A DNA stretch of 64,000 nt from the NCBI GenBank assembly GCA_949290395.1, contig CASERQ010000004.1, positions 85,598-149,597 of the forward strand, in the 5' to 3' direction. Under the pieces are notes generated by a model that saw only the letters and a program-made list of their open reading frames with translations, had not been told where the DNA came from and did not search any database. A program made the translations under genes and the position numbers. Every line of letters starts with the position of its first letter. Positions within the stretch are counted from its first letter, which is position 1. This DNA is from an uncultured bacterium. GTDB taxonomy: Bacteria; Bacillota_I; Bacilli_A; RFN20; CAG-826. Shown one piece after another: positions 14,939 to 51,065 of the stretch.

Positions 14939-17116
14939 ATGAAAAAGAATAGATTATTATTAGCTCTTTCTTTAGTTGGCTTTTTAACTGGTTGTGGTGC
15001 TCCACAAGAAAATACAGAAGGAAAAAACAGCCAAACTGAAGTCGCTAATGGAAAAGATGGAGTAGGTATTAAATCAATTACACTTACAACAAGTGAAGGA
15101 AATGTTGATACATATACAATTACATATACGAATAACACTACAACAACATTTAAAGTAACTAATGGTGTTAATGGTGAGCAAGGTATTCAAGGTGAACCAG
15201 GAGCTGATGGACATACTCCTGTTATCACAATTGGAGAAAATGGAAATTGGTTTATTGATGGCGTAGATAGTGGCGTTAGCGCAAAAGGTACACAAGGTGA
15301 ACAAGGCCCAGAAGGCCCACAAGGACCTCAAGGTGATCAAGGGGAACCTGGAAAAGATGGTAATGGTATTAAAGAAATCAAGTTAACCAAAACTGAAGGT
15401 AATGTAGATACATATACCATCTATTTTACTGATGGTACAGAAACCACATTCACAGTTACAAATGGTGCTGATGGCGAAGCTGGGATTGACGGTGAACCAG
15501 GTGAAGATGGACATACCCCTGAAATCACAATTGGTGAAAACGGAAACTGGTTTATTGATGGAGTAGATACTGGATTCTCAGCAAAAGGCACACAAGGAGA
15601 ACAAGGTGAACAAGGCCCTCAAGGCGATAAAGGTGAAGCTGGTGAAGATGGCCAAGACGGGAACGGCATTAAAGAAATTAAATTAACTAAAACTGAAGGT
15701 AATGTTGATACTTATACTATTTACTTTACAGATGGTAAAACAACAACTTTTGATATAACTAACGGAACAAGTGGAGAAGACGGAAAATCTGCATTTGAAA
15801 TATTCAAAGAATATAATCCTGATTATAAAGGCACTGAAAAAGATTGGATAAATGACATCATCAACGGTGAATTTAATAAGATTAAAGTTACTTTTGATGC
15901 AAATGGCGGAACTATTGATGGCGAAAACACTGTTGAAATTAAACAAGGGCAATCTTTAGGTGATAATCTTCCTGTTCCAACCAAACCTGGGAAAACATTC
16001 TTAGGTTGGTATACAGGATGGTCTGTGGCTGATGCAGAAGTTAACAAAATGACTCAAATTCATTCGGATTTAACATTGATTGCTAAATGGGACACGTATG
16101 ATGTTAAATTCTTGGATAAAGATGGTAATGTGTTTGAGACTAAAATTGTCAATCACGGGGATAAAGTTAGCGCGCCAGAGGATAAACCTTCATCCATTTT
16201 TGACTCCTATATTTTTTTAGAGTGGGAATATGATTTTGAAAAAATGATCTACTCCGATTTAGAAATTGAATCTTCTTGGAAGGCAAATGATGATGTTATT
16301 TTGACTTTTGGTTCTTATCCACAGTCTGTTGTAAAAGATAACGAGTTAAAAAAGCAACTTAGCAATTTAGAAAATGGACAAGTTTCAGGAAGCATTTTGG
16401 AATTTGATTTTAACGATGATGGTAACAAAGAAAAATATTTGTGCCAAAATGTTGAAAACGAGCGTTTGTCGAATGATAACATGAAAATTGAGAAAGGTAT
16501 AAATTATTTCCTATTTGAACCAATTCGCTGGACTGTTTTGCGCAAGGATGCTTCCGCATATTCATTGGTTACCGAAAGTGTTATCGATGTGCAATATTGG
16601 AATACAGAGTTTTATGAATATAAGGACCCTGAAACTTTTGAAGTAGAACAAATTTATAATAATTATGAAAAATCGACTATAAGAAAATGGTTGAATGATG
16701 AATTTTTAAATTTGGCATTTAATGATGTTGAGAAAAATACGATTTTAACAACTGAAGTTGATAATAGCCCAACTTCAACAAATAACGAGGAAAATAAATA
16801 TTGTTGTAATAATACAATTGATAGAGTTTATCTCTTAAGTAAGCAGGAAATCACTTCTGATCCTTTTTCTAATAGTGTAAGTCAAAAAGATCCCAAACGA
16901 ATAGGCAAAACTACTGATTATGCTAGATGTGTAGCAACAGAAGAAATGTTAATGGATATTGAAACATATGGAAATATAGCGTGGTGGACAAGATCTCCAA
17001 GTGCAAAGTTTAATTATAGTTCTACATGTGTGTGGAATATAGGAAGTGTAGGAGAAAGTTTTAACGTTAATTTTCATAGATATGGAGTTAGACCAGCATT
17101 AAAGGTTTCTATTTGA
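14939..17116 (+). CDS. Surface lipoprotein with collagen-like GXY triplet repeats, repeated GNVDTYTI..TDG..T.F.VTNG modules, a Listeria-Bacteroides (Flg_new) repeat and a conserved C-terminal domain
   Basis: Signal peptide with lipobox LTGCGAP. Runs of G-x-y triplets (GEQGIQGEPGADG, GTQGEQGPEGPQGPQGDQGEPGKDG). Repeated motif HTPVITIGENGNWFIDGVDSG. Flg_new-like VTFDANGGT...GKTFLGWYT. C-terminal region ends WWTRSP...GVRPALKVSI. Confidence 0.7.
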   Translation: MKKNRLLLALSLVGFLTGCGAPQENTEGKNSQTEVANGKDGVGIKSITLTTSEGNVDTYTITYTNNTTTTFKVTNGVNGEQGIQGEPGADGHTPVITIGENGNWFIDGVDSGVSAKGTQGEQGPEGPQGPQGDQGEPGKDGNGIKEIKLTKTEGNVDTYTIYFTDGTETTFTVTNGADGEAGIDGEPGEDGHTPEITIGENGNWFIDGVDTGFSAKGTQGEQGEQGPQGDKGEAGEDGQDGNGIKEIKLTKTEGNVDTYTIYFTDGKTTTFDITNGTSGEDGKSAFEIFKEYNPDYKGTEKDWINDIINGEFNKIKVTFDANGGTIDGENTVEIKQGQSLGDNLPVPTKPGKTFLGWYTGWSVADAEVNKMTQIHSDLTLIAKWDTYDVKFLDKDGNVFETKIVNHGDKVSAPEDKPSSIFDSYIFLEWEYDFEKMIYSDLEIESSWKANDDVILTFGSYPQSVVKDNELKKQLSNLENGQVSGSILEFDFNDDGNKEKYLCQNVENERLSNDNMKIEKGINYFLFEPIRWTVLRKDASAYSLVTESVIDVQYWNTEFYEYKDPETFEVEQIYNNYEKSTIRKWLNDEFLNLAFNDVEKNTILTTEVDNSPTSTNNEENKYCCNNTIDRVYLLSKQEITSDPFSNSVSQKDPKRIGKTTDYARCVATEEMLMDIETYGNIAWWTRSPSAKFNYSSTCVWNIGSVGESFNVNFHRYGVRPALKVSI

Positions 17117-17198
17117 GAAGTTTTCATTATAAAGCCTAAGGAATTACTTATTTATTGTTTTAATTGATTTTCTTTTGGAAATATTGTTTGCTTCCTCC

Positions 17199-17225
17199 TT
17201 TACATCCCCCTCTCATTGTTATAAA
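17199..17225 (+). promoter_or_regulatory. Candidate sigma-A promoter for the metK leader (TTTACA-15-TGtTATAAA)
   Basis: -35 TTTACA at 17199-17204. Extended -10 TGTTATAAA at 17217-17225. Predicted TSS near 17232, at the start of the structured leader. Confidence 0.35.
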
Positions 17226-17231
17226 CTTGTA

Positions 17232-17402
17232 TCACTTATCAAGAATCACACAAATATTAAGTGAAAAAGTGTGATAGCAACTCTCTTAAATAGAGTAAGT
17301 GCTCCTTAATAGCAAGGTCCCACAAGCCTTGAACGATAAGAGTGGATGAAGAAGATTATAACTCCCACAAACTTGTGGGAGTTTTTTAGTAGAGGAATAT
17401 AT
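17232..17402 (+). promoter_or_regulatory. Structured metK 5' leader ending in an intrinsic terminator (riboswitch-like attenuator, possibly a SAM-responsive variant)
   Basis: 5' CUUAUCAAGA ... GAUAAGAG 3' closing helix (17235-17244 / 17335-17342) enclosing three internal hairpins (AUCACAC/GUGUGAU, ACUCU/AGAGU, CAAGG/CCUUG). Then terminator hairpin CTCCCACAA/TTGTGGGAG plus T6 (17362-17387), immediately upstream of the metK RBS. Confidence 0.35.
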
Positions 17403-18563
17403 ATGGAAGAAAGAATTTTATTTACAAGTGAATCTGTTAGTGAAGGACATCCTGATAAGGTCTGTGACCAAATAAGTGATGCAATACTTGATGCAGTATT
17501 AAAAGAAGATAAGGATAGCTTTGTTGCTTGCGAATGTTTTGCAACAACTGATTTCCTTTTAATAGGAGGAGAGATTACAACAAAAGCTAAAGTTGATTAT
17601 GAAAAAGTAGCTCGTGAAGTTATAAAAGATATTGGCTACGATAAAGACGAACTTGGTTTTAACTATAAGACAGTTAAAATCTTAAACAAGATTAAAACCC
17701 AATCTCCTGATATTAGACAAGGCGTATATAATGATGATCCTCTTTTATATGGAGCAGGCGATCAAGGAATTATGTTTGGCTATGCTTCTAATGAATCAGA
17801 AGGATATATGCCTCTTGCAATCTGTATTGCTCATAAACTTGTTAGAATTGCAACTCAACTTAGAAAAGAAGGAAAGTTTAAAAGTGCCCGTCCTGATATG
17901 AAAAGTGAAGTTACAATAGACTATACAGAGACTAAACCTCGCATCAAAACAATCCTAATGTCCTGCCAACATGATCCAGATTATGATGAAAAAGAATTTA
18001 AAGCTTTCATTGAAAATGAAATTATGAAAAAAGTTGCTCTTTCTTTTGATTTAAATACCGACTTTGAAGTTTTAATTAATCTAACTGGTAGATTTGTTCT
18101 TGGAGGACCAGCTGGGGATACAGGATTAACAGGAAGAAAGATTATTGTTGATACGTATGGGGGAAGTGCCCGCCATGGAGGTGGCGCGTTTAGTGGCAAA
18201 GACCCATCAAAGGTTGATAGAAGTGCAGCCTATCTAGCGCGTTACATCGCAAAAAATTTAGTTGCAGCAGGCGTTGCTGATAGACTTGAAGTTCAACTTT
18301 CTTACGCAATAGGCAAGGCTGAGCCTTTATCAGTTTCAATATCAACTTTTAAAACGTCTCACTATAGTGATGCTAAAATTTTAGAAATTATAAGAAAAGT
18401 ATTTGATACGAGACCTGGCGCTATAATTAAAAATTTCTCTTTAAAAGAACCATCGTTTAAATATAAAGATATTTCTAATTATGGACATTTTGGTAGACCA
18501 GATTTAGATTTACCTTGGGAAAAACTTGATAAAGTAGACGAAATTAAATCTCTTTTAAAGTAA
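17403..18563 (+). CDS. metK: S-adenosylmethionine synthetase
   Basis: MEERILFTSESVSEGHPDKVCDQISDAILDA... with canonical GHPDK motif and GGGAFSGKDPSKVDRS signature. The track ORF starts earlier, but ATG 17403 follows the RBS and terminator. Confidence 0.9.
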   Translation: MEERILFTSESVSEGHPDKVCDQISDAILDAVLKEDKDSFVACECFATTDFLLIGGEITTKAKVDYEKVAREVIKDIGYDKDELGFNYKTVKILNKIKTQSPDIRQGVYNDDPLLYGAGDQGIMFGYASNESEGYMPLAICIAHKLVRIATQLRKEGKFKSARPDMKSEVTIDYTETKPRIKTILMSCQHDPDYDEKEFKAFIENEIMKKVALSFDLNTDFEVLINLTGRFVLGGPAGDTGLTGRKIIVDTYGGSARHGGGAFSGKDPSKVDRSAAYLARYIAKNLVAAGVADRLEVQLSYAIGKAEPLSVSISTFKTSHYSDAKILEIIRKVFDTRPGAIIKNFSLKEPSFKYKDISNYGHFGRPDLDLPWEKLDKVDEIKSLLK

Positions 18564-18662: not shown

Positions 18663-19115
18663 ATGAATAAATATATGAAAGAGGCTATTAAAGAAGCCAA
18701 GAAAGGTATTTTAAGTGACCATGGAGGTCCTTTTGGTTCAGTAATAGTAAAAGATAATAAGATTATTGCTAGAGCTCATAATGAAGTTATTAAAAGCCAA
18801 GATCCAACGTGTCATGGAGAGATGCAAGCGATAAGAAAAGCATGTAAAAAATTAAAAACTTTTGATTTATCAGGTTGTGAACTTTATACAACAGGTGAGC
18901 CTTGTCCAATGTGTCTAGGGGCAATTTTATGGGCAAGAATTGATAAAGTCTATTATGGATCAAATGTTATAGATACTAAAAAGATTGGATTTGATGATTT
19001 AGAGTTTTATGAAAAACTTAAAAACAAAGATGAGTTTTTAGTTGAGTTAGATAGAGATGCTTGCTTAAAACTCTATGAAGAATATATGGCTTTAGAAAAG
19101 AAGTCGGAGTATTAA
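18663..19115 (+). CDS. Cytidine/deoxycytidylate-deaminase-fold enzyme, guanine deaminase (GuaD)-like / tRNA adenosine deaminase-like
   Basis: 150 aa with HGE...PCPMC zinc-binding motifs (CHGEMQAIRKA; GEPCPMCLGAILWARI). Close in length and sequence pattern to Bacillus GuaD. Confidence 0.6.
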   Translation: MNKYMKEAIKEAKKGILSDHGGPFGSVIVKDNKIIARAHNEVIKSQDPTCHGEMQAIRKACKKLKTFDLSGCELYTTGEPCPMCLGAILWARIDKVYYGSNVIDTKKIGFDDLEFYEKLKNKDEFLVELDRDACLKLYEEYMALEKKSEY

Positions 19116-19928: not shown

Positions 19929-20489
19929 ATGAAGTATCAAATTATTGGCAAAAACATTGAAGTAACAGAGGGTATTTCTGCTGCTTTAACTAAAAAATTA
20001 TCCAAGATGGACAAATACTTCAAAAATGACGATGAAGTAAGTTGTAGGGCTGTTGTAAGAAGCTACAAAAAAGGCGAAGCAAAAGTTGAAATTACAATTT
20101 TTACAAAAGACACAACCTTTAGAGCTGAAGTAAAAACTAATGATTTATATGCTGCTTTCGACCTTGCAATTGATAAGCTTCAAGGTCAAATGAGAAAGCT
20201 TAAAACTAAATTAAGAAACCGTTATGACCGTGCTGGAATTGGTAAAGCTCTTGTCTTTGAAGAAATTCAAGATGAAGTCGAAAAAGAAGAAGAGGGAAGT
20301 GTTGTTAGAACTAAGGTCTTAGACCTTAAACCAATCTCCGCTGAAGAAGCAGTTCTTGAAATGGAAGCTATTGGACATGATTTCTATTTATATCTTGATA
20401 CTGATGATGAGAAAATCAGTGTTGTATATAAAAGAGAAGATGGAGGTTATGGTTTACTCCAAGCTTCAAATAAGATCGATATTAAATAG
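19929..20489 (+). CDS. hpf: Ribosome hibernation promoting factor (long form)
   Basis: 186 aa, MKYQIIGKNIEVTEGISAA... N-terminal RaiA/HPF domain plus a C-terminal dimerization domain. Strong RBS AAGGAGA. Confidence 0.85.
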   Translation: MKYQIIGKNIEVTEGISAALTKKLSKMDKYFKNDDEVSCRAVVRSYKKGEAKVEITIFTKDTTFRAEVKTNDLYAAFDLAIDKLQGQMRKLKTKLRNRYDRAGIGKALVFEEIQDEVEKEEEGSVVRTKVLDLKPISAEEAVLEMEAIGHDFYLYLDTDDEKISVVYKREDGGYGLLQASNKIDIK

Positions 20490-25802: not shown

Positions 25803-25892
25803 TGGCGGAGAAAAGGGGATTTGAACCCCTGCTTCCTTTTACAGAACTATGAGCTTTCCAAGCCCACCCCTTCAGCCTCTTGGGTATTTCTC
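25803..25892 (-). tRNA. tRNA-Ser (anticodon GGA), class II with long variable arm
   Basis: Reverse complement reads GGAGAAATACCCAAGAGGCTGAAGGGGTGGGCTTGGAAAGCTCATAGTTCTGTAAAAGGAAGCAGGGGTTCAAATCCCCTTTTCTCCGCCA. It has a 7-bp acceptor stem, anticodon loop TTGGAAA (GGA), about a 20-nt variable arm, T-arm GGGGTTCAAATCCCC and an encoded CCA. Confidence 0.85.
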
Positions 25893-25943
25893 CGTGCGGA
25901 TAGTATTTTATCATTAACTAAGAGGATTTGTCATTAATTTTTT

Positions 25944-41749: not shown

Positions 41750-41872
41750 AGTTTAGTAGGCAAAATATACCAAAGACAGTAACGGATGAAAGTCTTAATT
41801 ATGTTACCGAGGTGATATTAATATAAAATCCTCATGTATATTTGGCCTCGAAATATATTAGGGAGGTAAAGG
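41750..41872 (+). promoter_or_regulatory. Candidate ribosomal protein L10 leader (autoregulatory rplJL 5' UTR)
   Basis: 120-nt structured intergenic region with paired segments (GTAAC...GTTAC; CCTCATG...; GGCCTCGAAA) directly upstream of the rplJ RBS GGGAGG. Firmicutes commonly carry an L10(L12)4-binding leader here. Confidence 0.3.
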
Positions 41873-43440: not shown

Positions 43441-46400
43441 ATGAAATCTTATAAGGATTATCCAAAGATTAACAACGATCGTATTAATTTCTCCAAGATA
43501 AGTGGAAATCTTGAACTTCCTTACCTTGTTGAAATTCAAACTGAATCTTACAAAAACTTCCTCAAAAATGGTATTGATGAGGTCTTTAGGGATGTATTCC
43601 CTATTAGTAATTATGGCGAAACAATGTCCATCGTCTATAATTCTTTCCGAATTGATGCTCCTAAACACACATACTTAGAGTGTAAAGAAAAAGATTTAAC
43701 ATACAGTGCACCATTAACTGTTAACTTAAGACTTGTTTTAAAAGAAACAGGTGAATTTGTTGATAGCGATGTCTTTATGGGTGATATCCCACTCATGACT
43801 GAAAGTGGAACTTTTATTGTAAATGGTGCAGAAAGAGTTATTGTCTCTCAAATTGTTAGATCTCCAGGCGCTTATTTATCAAAAACTTTTGATAACAAAT
43901 TTGGTAAATATTTATACAATGCCGATTTAATTCCTGCTCGTGGTACTTGGCTTGAATTTGAAAGCGATGCTAAAGGCTACTTATGGGTTAGAATTGATCG
44001 TCAAAGAAAAATGCCAGCTGTTATTTTATTGAAGGCTTTAGGCATTGAAAGTGATGAAGATATTTTAAATCTTTTTGGAGATAGAGAAACTTTAAGACTT
44101 ACTTTATCAAAAGATGTTGACACCAAAACATCATTAAAAGCTTTAAAAGAAATCTTCAGAAAATTAAAACCAGGCGAACCAATTACAGATGAAGGTGTTC
44201 ATACTTTCTTAGTTCAAAAATTCTTTGATGCTAAACGTTATGATTTAGGTCGTGCTGGTAGATTTAAATACGCTAAAAAACTTGGCATTTATAACAGACT
44301 TGAAAACAGAATTCTTGCTGAAAATCTTGTAAGTGCTGAAGGTGAAATTAAATACAAAAAGGGTACTCTTTTAACAAAAGAAATGGTTGATGGTCTTCAA
44401 GATGAAGAATTCTTCGAAAAAGGTGCTCATAGATTTGATATTTCAGTTAACGAAAAACTTGATACACATGGTACAGTAAATATTGTTAAAGTTTTTGCTG
44501 ATGATAAAGAAGATGTAATTTCTAACGTCATCGGTACCGATTTAAATTTAACTGAAACAAGAGTTACAATCTCTGATATGATTGCAATTTTCAGCTATTT
44601 CATTAACTTAATGGATGGCTTTGGCAACGTCGACGATATTGATAACCTTTCAAATAGACGTATTAGATCAGTTGGTGAACTTATTCAAACTCAATTCAGA
44701 ATTGGTCTTACAAAGATGGCTAAAAACATCACTCAAAAGATGTCTGTTACAACCGGAACAGAAACAAAAGATTCTCCAAAATCTTTAATTAACATTAAAC
44801 CTCTTGCAAGTGCAATTCGTGAATTCTTCTCTTCATCCCAACTTTCTCAATTCATGGATCAAACCAATCCTCTTGCAGAACTTGCTAATAAACGTAGAAT
44901 TTCTGCTTTAGGTCCTGGCGGATTAACTCGTGATAGAGCAAGTATGGAAGTCAGAGACGTTCACTTTACTCACTATGGTAGAATCTGTCCTATTGAAACT
45001 CCTGAAGGACAAAACATTGGTTTAATTAATAACCTTGCAACTTATGCAAAAATTAATAAATACGGATTTATCGAGACTCCTTATAGACTTGTTGATAAAG
45101 AAAGTGGCGAAATCTTAGAAAAAACAGTTTATTTATCAGCTGATGAAGAAAACAACCACGTAATCGCTCAAGCTACAAGAGAAGATATCGTAGATCACAA
45201 ACTTGCTAACGATAAAATCGTTGCTAGATATAATGGAAGGAACATTCTTGCTGATAGAAAAGATGTTGATTACATTGATGAATCACCAATGCAAATCGTT
45301 TCTGTTGCAGCTGCTTGTATTCCTTTCCTTGAAAACGATGATAACACCCGTGCTCTCATGGGTGCTAACATGCAAAGACAAGCTCTTCCACTTTTAAAAC
45401 CACATGCTCCATACGTTGGAACTGGTTTAGAGCACAAGATTGCTCATGACTGTGGACTTGCTGTTGTTTCAGCTGGTGATGGTATTGTTACTTATAGCGA
45501 TTCAACAAAGATCGTTGTCCAAGAAAAAGAAGGTGCTAGAACATATCACCTCCAAAAATATGAAAGAAGTAATAACGGCACATGTATTAACCAAAGAAGC
45601 ATTGTAAAAGTTGGTCAAGAAGTTAAAAAAGGTCAACTTATCGCTGATGGTCCTTCAATGGAAAACGGTGATCTTGCTTTAGGTCAAAACGTCGTTGTTG
45701 CTTTCATGACTTGGGAAGGTCTTAACTACGAAGACGCTATCATCTTAAACGAAAGACTTGTTAAAGATGATGTTTATACAACAATTCATATCGAAAGCTA
45801 TGAAATTGAATGTAGAGATACCAAAAACGGTAAAGAATATTTAACTCCAGATGTTCCAAATATTGGAATTGATGGTAAGAGACATCTCGATGATAGAGGT
45901 ATTGTCTATCCTGGAACAGATGTCAAAGAAGGCGATATCCTTGTTGGTAAAGTTACTCCAAAAGGAACAAGCGAACCTTCCCCAGATCAAAAATTACTTG
46001 ATGCTATCTTTGGTGATAAATCAAAAGATGGTAAAGATACATCTTTAAGAGTACCACATGGTGGAGCTGGTACAGTATTAGACGTCAAAGTCTTTACTCG
46101 TGAAAATCAAGACGAACTTGCTCCTGGCGTTAACATTAAAGTTAGAGTCTATGTTGCTCAAAAGAGAAAAATCTCTGAAGGTGATAAGATGTCTGGAAGA
46201 CACGGTAATAAAGGTGTTATTTCACGTATTGTTCCAAGTGAAGATATGCCATTCCTTCCAGATGGCACTCCAGTAGATATTTTACTTAACCCTCAAGGTG
46301 TTCCATCCCGTATGAATATTGGTCAAATTCTTGAAGTTCACTTAGGTATGGCTTGTAAAGCTCTTGGTGGATTAAAGATTGCTACCCCTGTTTTTGATGG

Positions 46401-47037
46401 CATTTCAAACGATGAAATCATGGAAATGATGAAAGAAGCTAAGATGCCAGGCGATGGTAAATATACACTTTATGATGGTAGAACTGGTGAGAAGTTTGAT
46501 GAAAGAATTAACGTTGGTGTTATGTATATGATTAAACTTGTTCACATGGTTGATGATAAACTTCACGCACGTGCTACTGGACCTTACTCAATGGTTACAC
46601 AACAACCACTTGGTGGTAAAGCTCAGAACGGTGGTCAAAGATTTGGTGAAATGGAAGTCTGGGCTCTTGAAGCTTATGGTGCAGCCAATATTCTCCAAGA
46701 AATGATGACCATTAAATCTGATGATAGAGTTGGAAGAAGAAAAGCTTATGAATCAATTATCAAAGGCAAACCACTTCCAAAACCTTCAATTCCTGAAGCA
46801 TTTAAAGTTTTAACTAAAGAACTTATGGGCTTAGGAATGGACGTTGAACTTACATCAAAAGATGGCAAGATTGTCGATATGGATTCTCTTGCTAGACAAA
46901 CTCAACAAGAAGAACAACGTTCTATGTCTTCCATTAGAAACTTAGGTCGTGAATCTTCTAGCGAAAGAAACTTAATTCTTGAAAACGATTTTGATACCGA
47001 TGGTAGTCAAGAATCGATCAATGACTTATTCAATTAA
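43441..47037 (+). CDS. rpoB: DNA-directed RNA polymerase subunit beta
   Basis: 1198 aa with canonical RpoB blocks (e.g. [38 protein letters not shown]). Confidence 0.95.
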
Positions 47038-47054: not shown

Positions 47055-50000
47055 GTGTTTGATGTCGAAAAATTAGCTAGTATTAAAGTTGGATTAGCAT
47101 CTCCTGAAAAAATTAGAGAATGGTCACATGGTGAAGTTACAAAACCAGAAACCATCAACTACAGAAGCCAAAAGCCAGAAATGGATGGCTTATTCTGCGA
47201 AAAAATCTTTGGACCTAGCAAAGATTATGAATGTCATTGTGGTAAATATAAAAAGATTAGATATGCAGGTGTCGTTTGTGAAAAATGTGGCGTTGAAGTC
47301 ATTTCTAAAGAAGTTAGAAGAGAAAGAATGGGCCATATTGAACTTGCTTCACCATGCTCTCACATCTGGTATTTAAAAGGTATTCCTTCAAGAATGGGTC
47401 TTGTCTTAGACGTTTCCCCAAAAGCTCTTGAAGAAGTTATCTATTTCTCAGCTCATATCTGCTTAAACCCAGGTACATGTAAAGCTTTATATTACAAACA
47501 ATTCTTAGACGATAGAATTGGTAGAGAAACTTTCATCACTGCTATTAAAGAAATTGATGAAGGTATCGATAAAGAAACTTTTGAACACACCAAAGCTTTA
47601 GAACTTTTAGAGAGATTACATAATCCAAATGAACCATTTGATTTCTTCTCTTGCGCTGAATTTATTAGTGATCACACTGGTGCTGAATTTGGTGAAGGTG
47701 CTGAAGCTATCAAAAGACTTTTAAAAGAAGTTCAAATTGATGACTTTAAAGGCAAAAACGATCTTGGTGAAGATGTTTTTGTTGAAGGTGAATTCTCAAA
47801 AGTTAGTAAAGAAATTAAGAATTCAAGTGGTCAAAAAAGACAAAAACTTATCAAAAGACTTGAAGTCTTAGATGCATTTAGAAAATCAAACAACAAACCA
47901 GAATGGATGATTTTAGATGCATTACCAGTCATACCACCAGATTTAAGACCAATGTTACAACTTGATGGTGGTAGATTTGCAACTTCCGATTTAAACGATT
48001 TATATAGAAGAATTATTACTCGTAATAATCGTCTTAAAAAACTTATCGATCTTGGAGCGCCTTACGTTATCTTAATGAACGAAAAGAGAATGCTTCAAGA
48101 AGCAGTCGATGCTTTAATCGATAATGGTAGAAGAAATGGTAAACCAGTTACTGGTCCAAATGGCAGACCTCTTAAATCATTATCTGGTGCTTTAAAAGGT
48201 AAACAAGGTAGATTTAGACAAAACTTACTTGGTAAGAGAGTCGATTACTCTGGCCGTTCCGTTATTGCTATTGGTCCTACACTTAAGATGTATCAATGTG
48301 GACTTCCACGTGAAATGGCAATTAACCTTTTAAGACCATATATTGCTGCTGTTTTAATTAAAGAAGGCAAATGTTTATTACATAGACAAGCTGATAAGAA
48401 GATTGATAATAGAGATAGCGACGTTTATGACGTTGTTGAAAAAATTATCTCTCAACACCCAGTCTTACTTAACCGTGCACCTACACTTCATAGACTTGGT
48501 ATTCAAGCTTTCCAACCAATCCTTGTTGAAGGTAGAGCAATCAGACTTCACCCACTTGTTTGTACTGGATTCAATGCTGACTTCGATGGTGACCAAATGG
48601 CTGTTCACGTTCCACTTTCAAAGGCTGCCCAAGAAGAAGCTATTGATTTAATGCTTGCAAGTAATAATATTCTTGCTCCAAAAGACGGAAAACCAATCGT
48701 TACTCCATCTCAAGATATCTTAATCGGTAACTATTATTTAACTACCGAAGAGAGTAAAGAAGACTTCTTAAGACAAGCTGATAAATATGAAAGCTTAGGC
48801 GACACAGATAGAGCAAATCAATATCGTAAATTCGCTAATATGGAAGGTAAAGTCTTCAAAGATATTAACGAATGTTATAAATGTTATGAATTAGGTGAAA
48901 TTCATTTACATAACAGAATTGCAATTCCAGGAAGAGAAATGAAGAGAAAATCATTTACTCCTGAAATGAATAATTCATATCTTATTACAACTGTTGGTAA
49001 AGTTATCTTTAACTTTGCTTTCCCAACAGATTTCCCATATATCAATGATGGTTCTAAAGAAAACTTAAAGGGAAATGTTTCTAGATTCTTCGTTCCAAAA
49101 GGAACAAATATTGCTGAATTTATTAAAAACAGTCCAATTAAAGAACCAATTGGTAAAAAACAAATTACTGCAATTATTGATCAAGTCTATCAAGATTATG
49201 GAACAACAAAAACTTCCGCAGTCCTTGATAAGATTAAAGACCAAGGTTACAGATTCTCAACTTTAAGTGGTTTAACAGTTGCTATTAGTGATATTTATGT
49301 CGTCAAAGAAAAAGACGAATTTATCTCTAAAGGTGATGAAAGAATTGCTGAAATTGATAAATTATTCAATAAAGGTTATCTTACAGACGCTGAAAGACAC
49401 GCAAAAGTTGTTGAAGTTTGGAACCAAATCAACAGTAAAGTTGCAGATGATGTTCAAGACACCTTATCCAAAGATAAGAGAAACCCACTTTATATCATGT
49501 GGAACTCAGGCGCTAGAGGTAGTAAATCTAACTTCGCACAACTTATGGGTATGAGAGGTCTTATGGCTTCTACAAGTGGTGATACTATTGAACTTCCTGT
49601 TAAATCCTGTTTCCGTGAAGGTCTTAACGTTGCTGAATTCTTTACTGGTACTCACGGTGCTAGAAAAGGTGGTGCTGATACCGCATTAAAGACTGCTGAC
49701 TCAGGTTACCTCACACGTAGACTTGTTGATGTTTCTCAAGACGTTATCGTTAGAGAAGCTGATTGTCACACAGACCATGGAACAGTTGTTAAAGACATTG
49801 TTAATACAGCTCAAAACCAAGTCATCGTCTCTTTAGAAGATAGACTTATTGGTAGATTCTCTTGTCACGATATCATTCACCCTGAAACTGGAGAAGTTAT
49901 CGTTGCTGCAAATAATATGATTGATGAAAATCTTGCAAAAGAAATCGTTAATGCTGGTATTAAAGAAGTTGAAATCAGATCCTTATTTGGTTGTCAAACA

Positions 50001-51065
50001 AAGGATGGTGTCTGTCAACACTGTTATGGTAGAAATCTTGCTACAGGTAAACTTGTTGAAATTGGTGAAGCTGTTGGTATTATGGCTGCTCAATCCATTG
50101 GTGAACCAGGTACTCAACTTACCATGAGAACATTCCACTCTGGTGGTGTTGCTACAAGTGAAGATATTACTCAAGGTCTCCCTAGAGTCCAAGAACTTTT
50201 TGAAGCCAGAAATCCAAAAGGTGAAGCAACAATTTCTGAAATCAGTGGTCAAGTTACTAATATTGAAGATAGAAATGGTAGCTATTATGTAACTGTCACC
50301 AATGATCTTGAAGAAAGATCTTACTTAACTAACTTTGGTGCTAGACTTAGAGTTAAAAAAGGTGATTTTATCAAAAATGGTGGCAAAATTACAGAAGGTG
50401 CTATCTCACCTAAGAAACTTCTTGAAGTTAGTGATGTTAACTCAGTTCAAAACTACATTATTAAAGAAGTTCAAAAAGTTTATAGAGTTCAAGGTATTGC
50501 AATTAGCGATAAACACATTGAAGTTATCGTTAGACAAATGTTAAGAAAAGTCGTTATTGTTGATAGTGGCGATACCGATATGATTCCTGGAACAAGAGTT
50601 TCACTTCCAGAATTTACAAAGAATAACAAAGTTGCTTTACTTGCTGGAAAACGTCCTGCAGTTGCAACTCCACTTATTCTTGGTATTACAAAAGCTGCTC
50701 TTGAAACAGATTCCTTCTTATCAGCTGCATCCTTCCAAGAAACAACTCGTGTTCTTACCGATGCTGCAATCAAAGGTAAAGTTGACCCATTACATGGCTT
50801 AAAAGAAAACGTCATCACTGGTAAACTTATTCCAGCTGGCAGAGGATTAATTTCTAGAGAAAAAGAGAAAGAAATTCTTACAAACTTCGATGTTTTAGGA
50901 AGAATGGCAGAAGTCAAGAAACAATACGTTGGAGTTCACGATAGAAGTGAGGAAGATAACGATCACAGCAAAGAAATCTATGCTGATATCCAATCATTAG
51001 ATACAGAAGGTATGATTACTTCTAAACCTGATGACAATCTCTTCAAAACTGCTTTCGAAAACTAA
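47055..51065 (+). CDS. rpoC: DNA-directed RNA polymerase subunit beta'
   Basis: 1336 aa. GTG start 8 nt after GGGAGG. Zinc-finger [20 protein letters not shown], catalytic [12 protein letters not shown]. Extended C-terminus. Confidence 0.95.

Follow-up and report, generated by a model that had tools for sequence, protein, structure and literature searches.

We identified a conserved RNA motif in the leader of metK in a 64,000-nucleotide stretch of contig CASERQ010000004.1 from an uncultured bacterium (the window). The motif is a candidate S-adenosylmethionine (SAM) riboswitch related to the SAM-I class, from which it differs in the architecture of its second stem and apparently also in its expression platform. 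The open reading frame (ORF) downstream of the leader encodes MetK, as indicated by the Pfam domains PF00438, PF02772 and PF02773 on 99%-identical homologs. A mechanical ORF list opens metK at the ATG at 17346, inside the terminator; the real start is the ATG at 17403, because both the homologs and the ribosome-binding site (RBS) show so. The ORF upstream of the leader (14939-17116) lies on the same strand as metK, and the terminator is therefore not that of a convergent transcript, an objection that an earlier reading of the nucleotides (the sequence-only reading) had raised against itself. The elements of the leader are as follows, with residues of the ligand pocket numbered as in the T. tengcongensis SAM-I aptamer.

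17199-17225, plus strand: promoter read from the sequence, with -35 box TTTACA (17199-17204), a 15-nt spacer that ends in TGT (a TGn motif) and -10 box TATAAA (17220-17225)
17233-17240, plus strand: P1 5' strand, CACUUAUC, from the RF00162 alignment; equivalents of A6, U7 and C8 at 17238-17240
17235-17240 and 17335-17340, plus strand: closing helix CUUAUC/GAUAAG, with three hairpins inside
17241-17244, plus strand: J1/2, AAGA, with the G11 equivalent at 17243
17245-17275, plus strand: P2, a single undivided stem, AUCACAC (17245-17251) with GUGUGAU (17269-17275), and a 17-nt loop (17252-17268)
17255-17261, plus strand: 5' strand of pseudoknot PK-1, UAUUAAG, in the P2 loop; pairs with 17305-17311
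17262-17268, plus strand: connector UGAAAAA between the pseudoknot strand and the P2 3' strand
17276-17303, plus strand: P3, AGCA-A-CUCUCU with AGAG-UA-AGUGCU, from the RF00162 alignment; equivalents of C44, A45, A46 and C47 at 17278-17281 and of U57, G58 and C59 at 17300-17302
17305-17311, plus strand: 3' strand of PK-1, CUUAAUA, in J3/4
17313-17331, plus strand: P4, CAAGG (17313-17317) with CCUUG (17327-17331), and its loop L4, UCCCACAAG (17318-17326)
17332-17334, plus strand: J4/1, AAC
17335-17342, plus strand: P1 3' strand, GAUAAGAG; equivalents of A87 and U88 at 17336-17337, and A in place of G89 at 17338
17342-17345, plus strand: segment AT5, GUGG, directly after P1; pairs with CCAC (17365-17368) in the terminator 5' arm
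17360-17387, plus strand: intrinsic terminator, a 10-bp stem with arms AACUCCCACA (17360-17369) and UGUGGGAGUU (17374-17383), loop AACU and a U6 tract to 17387
17391-17396, plus strand: RBS, AGAGGA, read from the sequence
17403-18563, plus strand: metK (386 aa), from the ORF list and homologs

The sequence-only reading had described the promoter, the closing helix with its three internal hairpins, the terminator and the metK RBS, and each of these was found as it stated, in the sequence and in the minimum free energy (MFE) fold. The RNAfold MFE structure of 17230-17390 is a four-way junction followed by the terminator. Its energy of -41 kcal/mol compares with -27.0 +/- 3.3 kcal/mol for 200 shuffled sequences (z = -4.2), none of which is as stable. 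No other terminator was found in 16900-17600, a region where shuffled sequences yield 0.2. A consensus promoter scan recovered the promoter as a partial match only. From its position, transcription would start at about 17231-17233, which would place P1 at the 5' end of the transcript.

A scan of the whole window against Rfam at gathering level gave no match at the metK leader, and a scan of 351 nt (17100-17450) at E <= 10 gave no SAM-class match. When the scan was narrowed to 119 nt, however, the leader aligned with positions 1-108 of the SAM-I model (RF00162) at 38.5 bits (E = 7e-8). The wider scans miss this match because the speed filters of Infernal hide it, and these are laxer in the 119-nt scan. 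The Rfam search that the sequence-only reading had called for thus returns a SAM-I match, albeit a sub-threshold one found in the narrowed search only. The alignment covers P1, J1/2, the base of P2, the whole of P3, J3/4, P4 and J4/1, while 17 model positions that make up P2b and the kink-turn (K-turn) are replaced by an unaligned insert of 18 nt. Relatives of the leader (described below) score up to 51.9 bits (locus L121) and, in one small subtype, 35.6 bits on the same model. The conserved SAM-I nucleotides GGAGGGA and GGCCC are absent from the window leader, as the sequence-only reading had noted, but it had overlooked the P3 signature AGCAAC...GUGCU and the pseudoknot.

For residue numbering we used what we take to be the T. 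tengcongensis reference sequence, which agrees with all 13 published residue identities. The SAM pocket of this aptamer consists of A6, U7, C8, G11, A45, A46, C47, U57, G58, C59, A87, U88 and G89 (bioRxiv 10.64898/2026.03.23.713157). Under the RF00162 alignment, 12 of these 13 residues are identical in the window (17238-17240, 17243, 17279-17281, 17300-17302 and 17336-17337, plus strand), including the equivalents of U7 and U88, which read the sulfonium. The single change is G89 to A at 17338, and A is the Rfam consensus base at that position. As judged from this homology, the metK leader is a SAM-I (S-box) family riboswitch of a divergent sub-type, and its ligand class is not new. The suggestion in the sequence-only reading that the leader might be a variant SAM-responsive aptamer is supported by the RF00162 homology, the conserved pocket and covariation in about 100 metK leaders, whereas its other suggestion, a different effector class, finds no support, as the pocket matches that of the crystallised SAM-I aptamer at 12 of 13 residues. 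The leader is very probably an OFF switch of the SAM-I type; we infer SAM binding and the direction of regulation from sequence.

A contig search with MetK returned mostly distant taxa through the universal peptide HPDKVCDQ; the useful sequences were locus L001, a leader from a Thomasclavelia metagenome-assembled genome (MAG), and a few Firmicutes leaders of canonical type. Further contigs were reached through MetK homologs at 77-99% identity, and the leaders on them keep the architecture of the window with clear compensatory changes. A gene-agnostic pattern was then derived from the invariant core, CTTATCNAGAA-N20-45-TAGCAAC-N6-28-AAGTGCT, and applied to metagenomes. Pattern matches and earlier loci together comprise at least 134 instances and at least 105 distinct aptamers, and the family counts given here are among the matches listed. 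The motif directly precedes metK in 121 of the 134 listed instances, with 59-100% identity to the MetK of the window; of the remainder, 11 run off the end of the contig and two are chance matches. The relatives come from rumen, gut, digester and sludge metagenomes, and the MAGs are labelled 'Bacilli bacterium' or simply 'bacterium'. With a covariance model built from the variant (R1), the window scores 106 bits, variant-bearing contigs 54-113 bits and canonical Firmicutes metK leaders 18-61 bits, so that homology between SAM-I and the variant holds by covariance model in both directions. Over 697 kb of variant-bearing contigs, R1 gave exactly one match per true locus, always in the metK leader, and it found no further copies of the variant in these contigs or in the window. 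Among the listed family members, 80 of 105 have a TATAAT-like box with at least five of six matches, most commonly ending 7-8 nt before CUUAUC.

The secondary structure is well supported by covariation. In an alignment of 49 sequences less than 90% identical (A1), 95.0% of cells are standard pairs compared with 81.9 +/- 0.5% when partners are shuffled (none of 500 shuffles reaches the observed value), and slid partners pair in 31-43% of cells. RNAalifold independently predicts the same junction with the P2 loop open. The four-way-junction topology of SAM-I, proposed in the sequence-only reading from the window, is therefore seen in the MFE fold, in the paired cells of the alignment and in the RNAalifold consensus. 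Its proposed comparison of orthologous metK leaders likewise finds the helices conserved and covarying. In A1, both sides change at six of seven pairs in P2 (97% of cells paired), at six of six in PK-1, at four of five in P4 (100% of cells paired), at three of ten in P3 and at two of eight in P1. The six core pairs of P1 are invariant and its two outer pairs vary; in P3 the inner pairs covary, and the invariance of the outer pairs is partly imposed by the search pattern.

The P2 stem is a single helix of 6-7 bp (6 bp in 76 of the 105 listed sequences) with a loop of 13-19 nt. The loop consists of a linker of 2-6 nt, a strand of 5-7 nt complementary to J3/4 and, in most sequences, UGAAAAA. Stem statistics and RNAalifold reveal no P2b helix and no internal helix of the P2 loop in 49-105 family sequences. 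PK-1 forms seven Watson-Crick pairs in the window, and the family has about 39 different versions of the two complementary strands. The helix formed by each loop with its own J3/4 averages 5.5 bp, compared with 3.86 +/- 0.15 bp when loops and J3/4 are permuted (0 of 5000 permutations). A 7-nt tail follows the pseudoknot strand in 63 of 96 sequences, with the G and two A positions invariant. This UGAAAAA segment is probably a remnant of, or a replacement for, the bulged strand of the K-turn (GAUGAA in canonical SAM-I), and it may act as a hinge or an A-minor element. In one subclade (L114 5624-5735, L115, L118, L174 and L211), UAACCA(A/G)U stands after the pseudoknot strand in place of UGAAAAA, and the connector is therefore not universally A-rich.

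The pseudoknot strand has a second possible partner. UCACUUA in the P1 5' strand (17232-17238) is fully complementary to UAAGUGA (17258-17264), which spans part of the pseudoknot strand and the following UGA. One relative, L081, keeps a pairing of this type with one G-U (ACACUUA/UAGGUGU). In this clade it could be an alternative to P1 and the pseudoknot in the ligand-free state, or a by-product of the resemblance of J3/4 to the P1 5' strand. The long-range pair that is reported beside the pseudoknot of canonical SAM-I (PMC2258182) was not evident in the three sequences inspected.

Known SAM-I riboswitches have a split P2 with a K-turn, the pseudoknot PK-1 and P4; SAM-IV has P2a and P2b with a bend that is not a K-turn, both PK-1 and PK-2, and no P4; and SAM-I/IV has an undivided P2, no PK-1, and PK-2 (PMC6890682). 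The variant is a fourth combination, unlike all three: an undivided P2 together with PK-1 and a SAM-I-type P4. It shares with SAM-I (RF00162; for example the T. tengcongensis metF and the B. subtilis yitJ and metK leaders) the P1-P4 four-way junction, the pocket nucleotides in P1, J1/2 and P3, the PK-1 pairing of the P2 loop with J3/4, a P4 enclosed by the junction, a platform based on an intrinsic terminator and a methionine/SAM gene as the target. However, where SAM-I has P2a, K-turn and P2b the variant has one stem and a 13-19 nt loop, which directly forms a longer pseudoknot (5-7 bp) and carries the UGAAAAA connector. The variant resembles SAM-I/IV (RF01725) in its undivided P2 without a K-turn and its SAM-I-type pocket, but it has a covarying PK-1 and no significant signal for PK-2; the leader scan reported no match to RF01725, although overlapping matches within a clan are suppressed in that scan. 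With SAM-IV (RF00634) it has in common a SAM-I-like pocket, PK-1 and a P2 free of a K-turn. However, SAM-IV has separate P2a and P2b, no P4, and P5 and PK-2 downstream of P1, whereas the variant has P4 within the junction, with four of five pairs covarying. A PK-2 of the SAM-IV or SAM-I/IV type has no significant support in the variant, with 3.78 bp for own partners compared with 3.59 bp for permuted ones (309 of 5000 permutations).

A terminator follows the aptamer in 100 of the 105 listed leaders, 13-22 nt past P1. The sequence-only reading had assumed the usual terminator/antiterminator logic, and the terminator part of this assumption stands. The P1 3' strand does not appear to be the switching strand. 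J4/1 and the P1 3' strand have no specific complementarity to the terminator (3.78 bp for own partners compared with 3.73 bp for permuted ones), and we rejected a classical antiterminator through this strand, as the segments that pair with the terminator flank it instead. One of these is the P4 loop, which in the variant is 7-9 nt long and typically reads CCCAnn. In the window, L4 is complementary over 9 bp to CUUGUGGGA (17372-17380), which includes bases of the terminator loop and the top of the 3' arm, and this duplex is calculated at -15.7 kcal/mol compared with -14.1 kcal/mol for the terminator. Canonical metK leaders have a K-turn in P2, P4 loops of 3-4 nt and no pairing of the P4 loop with the terminator.

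The pairing of the P4 loop with the terminator is maintained through changes on both sides, among them CCCACA/UGUGGG, CCCACC/GGUGGG, CCCAUAA/UUAUGGG, CCCAGAA/UUCUGGG, CCCACG/CGUGGG and UUCCACA/UGUGGAA. Own partners form 6.2 bp compared with 4.83 +/- 0.14 bp after permutation (0 of 5000). With the constant CCA:UGG as anchor, 45 of 45 sequences pair at position +1 (C-G in 33, G-C in seven and U-A in five; shuffled mean 29.4) and 37 of 45 at position +2. Mere mimicry of the terminator 5' arm by the P4 loop was discarded as an explanation, since the helix is longer than any identity between loop and 5' arm in 41 of 46 sequences, and since bases of the terminator loop, which have no partner in the hairpin, are still paired with the P4 loop (24 of 24 at +1 and 33 of 40 at +2). 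This speaks for direct pairing. In most members the paired region extends over 3-5 nt of the 3' arm, namely the invariant UGG and its flanks.

Folding of shortened transcripts and the family table identified a second pairing segment, AT5. Across the family, this purine-rich segment starts 0-4 nt after GAUAAG and pairs with the base of the terminator 5' arm, mostly over 5-6 bp (4.89 bp for own partners compared with 4.42 bp for permuted ones; 0 of 5000). The two targets on the terminator strand are 0-4 nt apart (median 2), and the two pairings are nested and together make one helix, the 5' strand of which is interrupted by a bulge of 15-19 nt (P4 3' strand, J4/1 and P1 3' strand). Mean energies in the family are -13.8 kcal/mol for the terminator and -10.6 kcal/mol for the P4 loop with the terminator, while AT5 with the 5' arm amounts to about -2 to -11 kcal/mol in most sequences. 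An upstream extension of P1 that would hide the post-P1 segment was discarded, the -10 box lying 7-10 nt before CUUAUC in most members. Three more pairings were looked for by eye: J3/4 with the purine-rich stretch after P1, the 5' strand of the pseudoknot with the terminator 5' arm, and the P4 loop with the same stretch after P1. None of them holds consistently across the family.

Two kinds of relative deviate from this layout. In a mini subtype of metK leader (L099 2621-2714; also L112, L128, L138, L156, L159, L204, L207 and L212), which scores 54-72 bits on R1 and is the subtype at 35.6 bits on RF00162, the P2 loop is just 6-10 nt and P4 about 3 bp. Its post-P1 GAAAGUG pairs with the entire terminator 5' arm and overlaps the end of P1, and the partner of its P4 loop (UUGC) lies wholly within the terminator loop. 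The Thomasclavelia metK leader L001 (2350-2445; 54.7 bits on RF00162) looks intermediate, with a 3-bp P2b (GAU/AUC), the K-turn 3' strand GAUGAA, a 3-nt P4 loop and a classical antiterminator that overlaps the P1 3' strand.

Based on these pairings, we propose that abundant SAM would switch metK off by transcription termination, with 17233-17342 as the aptamer. In the absence of SAM, the post-P1 segment would hold the base of the terminator 5' arm, and the pre-formed P4 loop would capture the terminator loop and the top of the 3' arm, where the hairpin nucleates. The P4 3' strand, J4/1 and the P1 3' strand would be looped out, and RNA polymerase would read through. With SAM bound, a closed and coaxially stacked P1-P4 rod would keep the two antiterminator halves about 13-14 bp apart, a gap that the linker of 0-4 nt could not span, so that only one half could engage at a time. 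The terminator would then nucleate and displace the weak inner half by toehold displacement, and transcription would stop. We consider the explanation as a whole, a SAM-I variant that acts as an OFF switch by termination through a rewired platform, to be likely. For its parts our confidence differs. That the P4 loop forms part of a split antiterminator is the interpretation towards which we lean, by a little. The steric 'ruler' that would couple SAM to the antiterminator is tentative; this coupling is hypothetical and the weakest step of the mechanism, and our rough estimate of the distance is borderline. Equally, the complete picture of a widespread SAM-I sub-class without K-turn and P2b, with a split antiterminator that uses the P4 loop, a looped-out P1 3' strand and a SAM-closed P1-P4 stack as rigid spacer, is possible rather than probable.

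A parallel to such a platform is found in another class. Cobalamin (adenosylcobalamin) riboswitches exert control by pairing an aptamer loop with the expression platform, as a pseudoknot or kissing loop, rather than by exchange of P1 strands alone (PMC2258182), and in both systems the loop of an aptamer hairpin pairs with sequence beyond the aptamer core. However, the cobalamin riboswitches have another aptamer and ligand, and their contact forms in the ligand-bound state and usually hides the RBS, whereas the contact in the variant is predicted for the ligand-free state, in which it would block a terminator. In the open-access literature we found no description of a natural SAM-I riboswitch without a K-turn or of pairing between a P4 loop and a terminator; in a review of the expression platforms of SAM-I, nothing is mentioned beyond an 'anti-P4' fold, which lies within the aptamer (PMC5049679).

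Several observations weigh against our interpretation or limit what it can claim. The 38.5 bits of the window fall below the RF00162 gathering cutoff of 44.4 bits. That CUUAUC, AGAA, UAGCAAC and AAGUGCU do not vary within the family is imposed by the search pattern, and the shuffle and permutation controls ignore phylogeny and so overstate significance. The absence of a K-turn refers to P2b and to the canonical K-turn 5' strand, and UGAAAAA could form a non-canonical kink. With respect to the mechanism, the inner half of the antiterminator is just 4 bp in the window, and the RNAfold MFE structure already contains both the aptamer and the terminator in the absence of ligand. Since the P4 loop is exposed whether or not ligand is bound, any route by which SAM would act on the platform is hypothetical. 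Sterically, the P4-loop pairing and the inner helix might also be able to coexist with the closed aptamer.

The exposure of the P4 loop in both states is also what speaks for a different role of this loop, namely that its pairing with the terminator is real but serves as a docking contact for stability, processing or translation, or only as a kinetic delay. Two to four of the partner bases are in the terminator loop and could form a kissing contact without melting the stem, as could the UUGC of the mini subtype, which is entirely in that loop. In most members, however, 3-5 of the paired bases belong to the 3' arm and have to be released from the 5' arm. The target also lies next to that of the post-P1 segment, with 0-4 nt in between, and the resulting nested helix has an energy comparable with that of the terminator. 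We regard such a role as unlikely.

Somewhat less likely still is an ordinary SAM-I riboswitch, with a P2 within the normal range of variation, classical competition between P1 and an antiterminator, and complementarity of the P4 loop without function. The end-to-end RF00162 alignment, the relatives that score above the gathering level (51.9 bits), the SAM-I-like pocket, P3, pseudoknot position and P4, and the overlap of the post-P1 segment with the last one or two pairs of P1 in some members would all fit this explanation. However, the K-turn is conserved in SAM-I (PMC2258182), and it has been described as strongly conserved, as required for the kink in P2 by which the loop meets its partner, and as lowering SAM affinity when disrupted (PMC3651934). 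Given that P2b and the K-turn are conserved and functionally important (PMC2258182; PMC3651934), their absence from more than 100 sequences is hard to reconcile with normal variation. In addition, the P1 3' strand is not complementary to the terminator, and the P4 loop covaries with terminator-loop bases that otherwise have no partner, a feature that canonical leaders lack.

A changed ligand on the SAM-I scaffold, such as S-adenosylhomocysteine, a SAM analogue or another metabolite, appears very improbable. Other classes include riboswitch scaffolds whose specificity has changed, and the differing periphery and sub-threshold Rfam score would be in keeping with one, but 12 of 13 pocket residues are the same as in SAM-I, the U7 and U88 equivalents among them, the G89 to A change matches the Rfam consensus, and among the matches listed the element stands exclusively before metK, a classic SAM-repressed gene. 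Even more remote is the idea that the leader is no metabolite riboswitch and instead represents a T-box, an attenuator that depends on a protein, or a chance structure, for although the routine Rfam scan lacks a gathering-level match, the leader scans show no T-box or any other Rfam family at E <= 10, and the full-length SAM-I alignment, conserved pocket, strong covariation and fold z-score of -4.2 all speak against it.

The genes around the leader are only partly conserved. Upstream, the ORF at 14939-17116 (plus strand) encodes 725 aa with a lipoprotein-like signal (LTGCG), collagen-like GxY runs and internal repeats of roughly 100 aa, while relatives have a GH31 glycosidase or PTAC+TSCPD genes in this position, so that the neighbour is variable. 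Synteny is conserved 3' of metK, where a PF00383 deaminase-like gene is followed by hpf, encoding a ribosome hibernation factor (18663-19115 and 19929-20489); several relatives lack the deaminase-like gene. Elsewhere in the window, a ribosomal protein L10 leader (RF00557, 49.3 bits) at 41752-41849 on the plus strand lies ahead of ORFs in the positions of rplJ and rplL, followed by rpoB (43441-47037, supported by Pfam) and a 1336-aa ORF in the position of rpoC (47055-51065). The only tRNA in the window is a tRNA-Ser(GGA) with a long variable arm (25803-25893, minus strand).

What is new here is an architectural variant of SAM-I, with an apparently rewired expression platform, that is common in uncultured Bacilli. 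Routine Rfam/Infernal scans miss the leader, and metK consequently looks unregulated in many uncultured Bacilli of gut, rumen and digester. The variant fills a gap in the combinations of features known from SAM-I, SAM-IV and SAM-I/IV. The K-turn of SAM-I is the textbook kink that delivers a loop to its pseudoknot partner, and the variant bears on its supposed necessity, as it offers an alternative solution in which a longer pseudoknot and an A-rich connector accompany a pocket that is kept without P2b or a canonical K-turn. If the P4 loop is indeed one half of the antiterminator, this would be a SAM-I platform independent of P1 strand exchange, in which geometry, and not direct competition between strands, would link ligand binding to termination, a principle that would be useful in riboswitch engineering.

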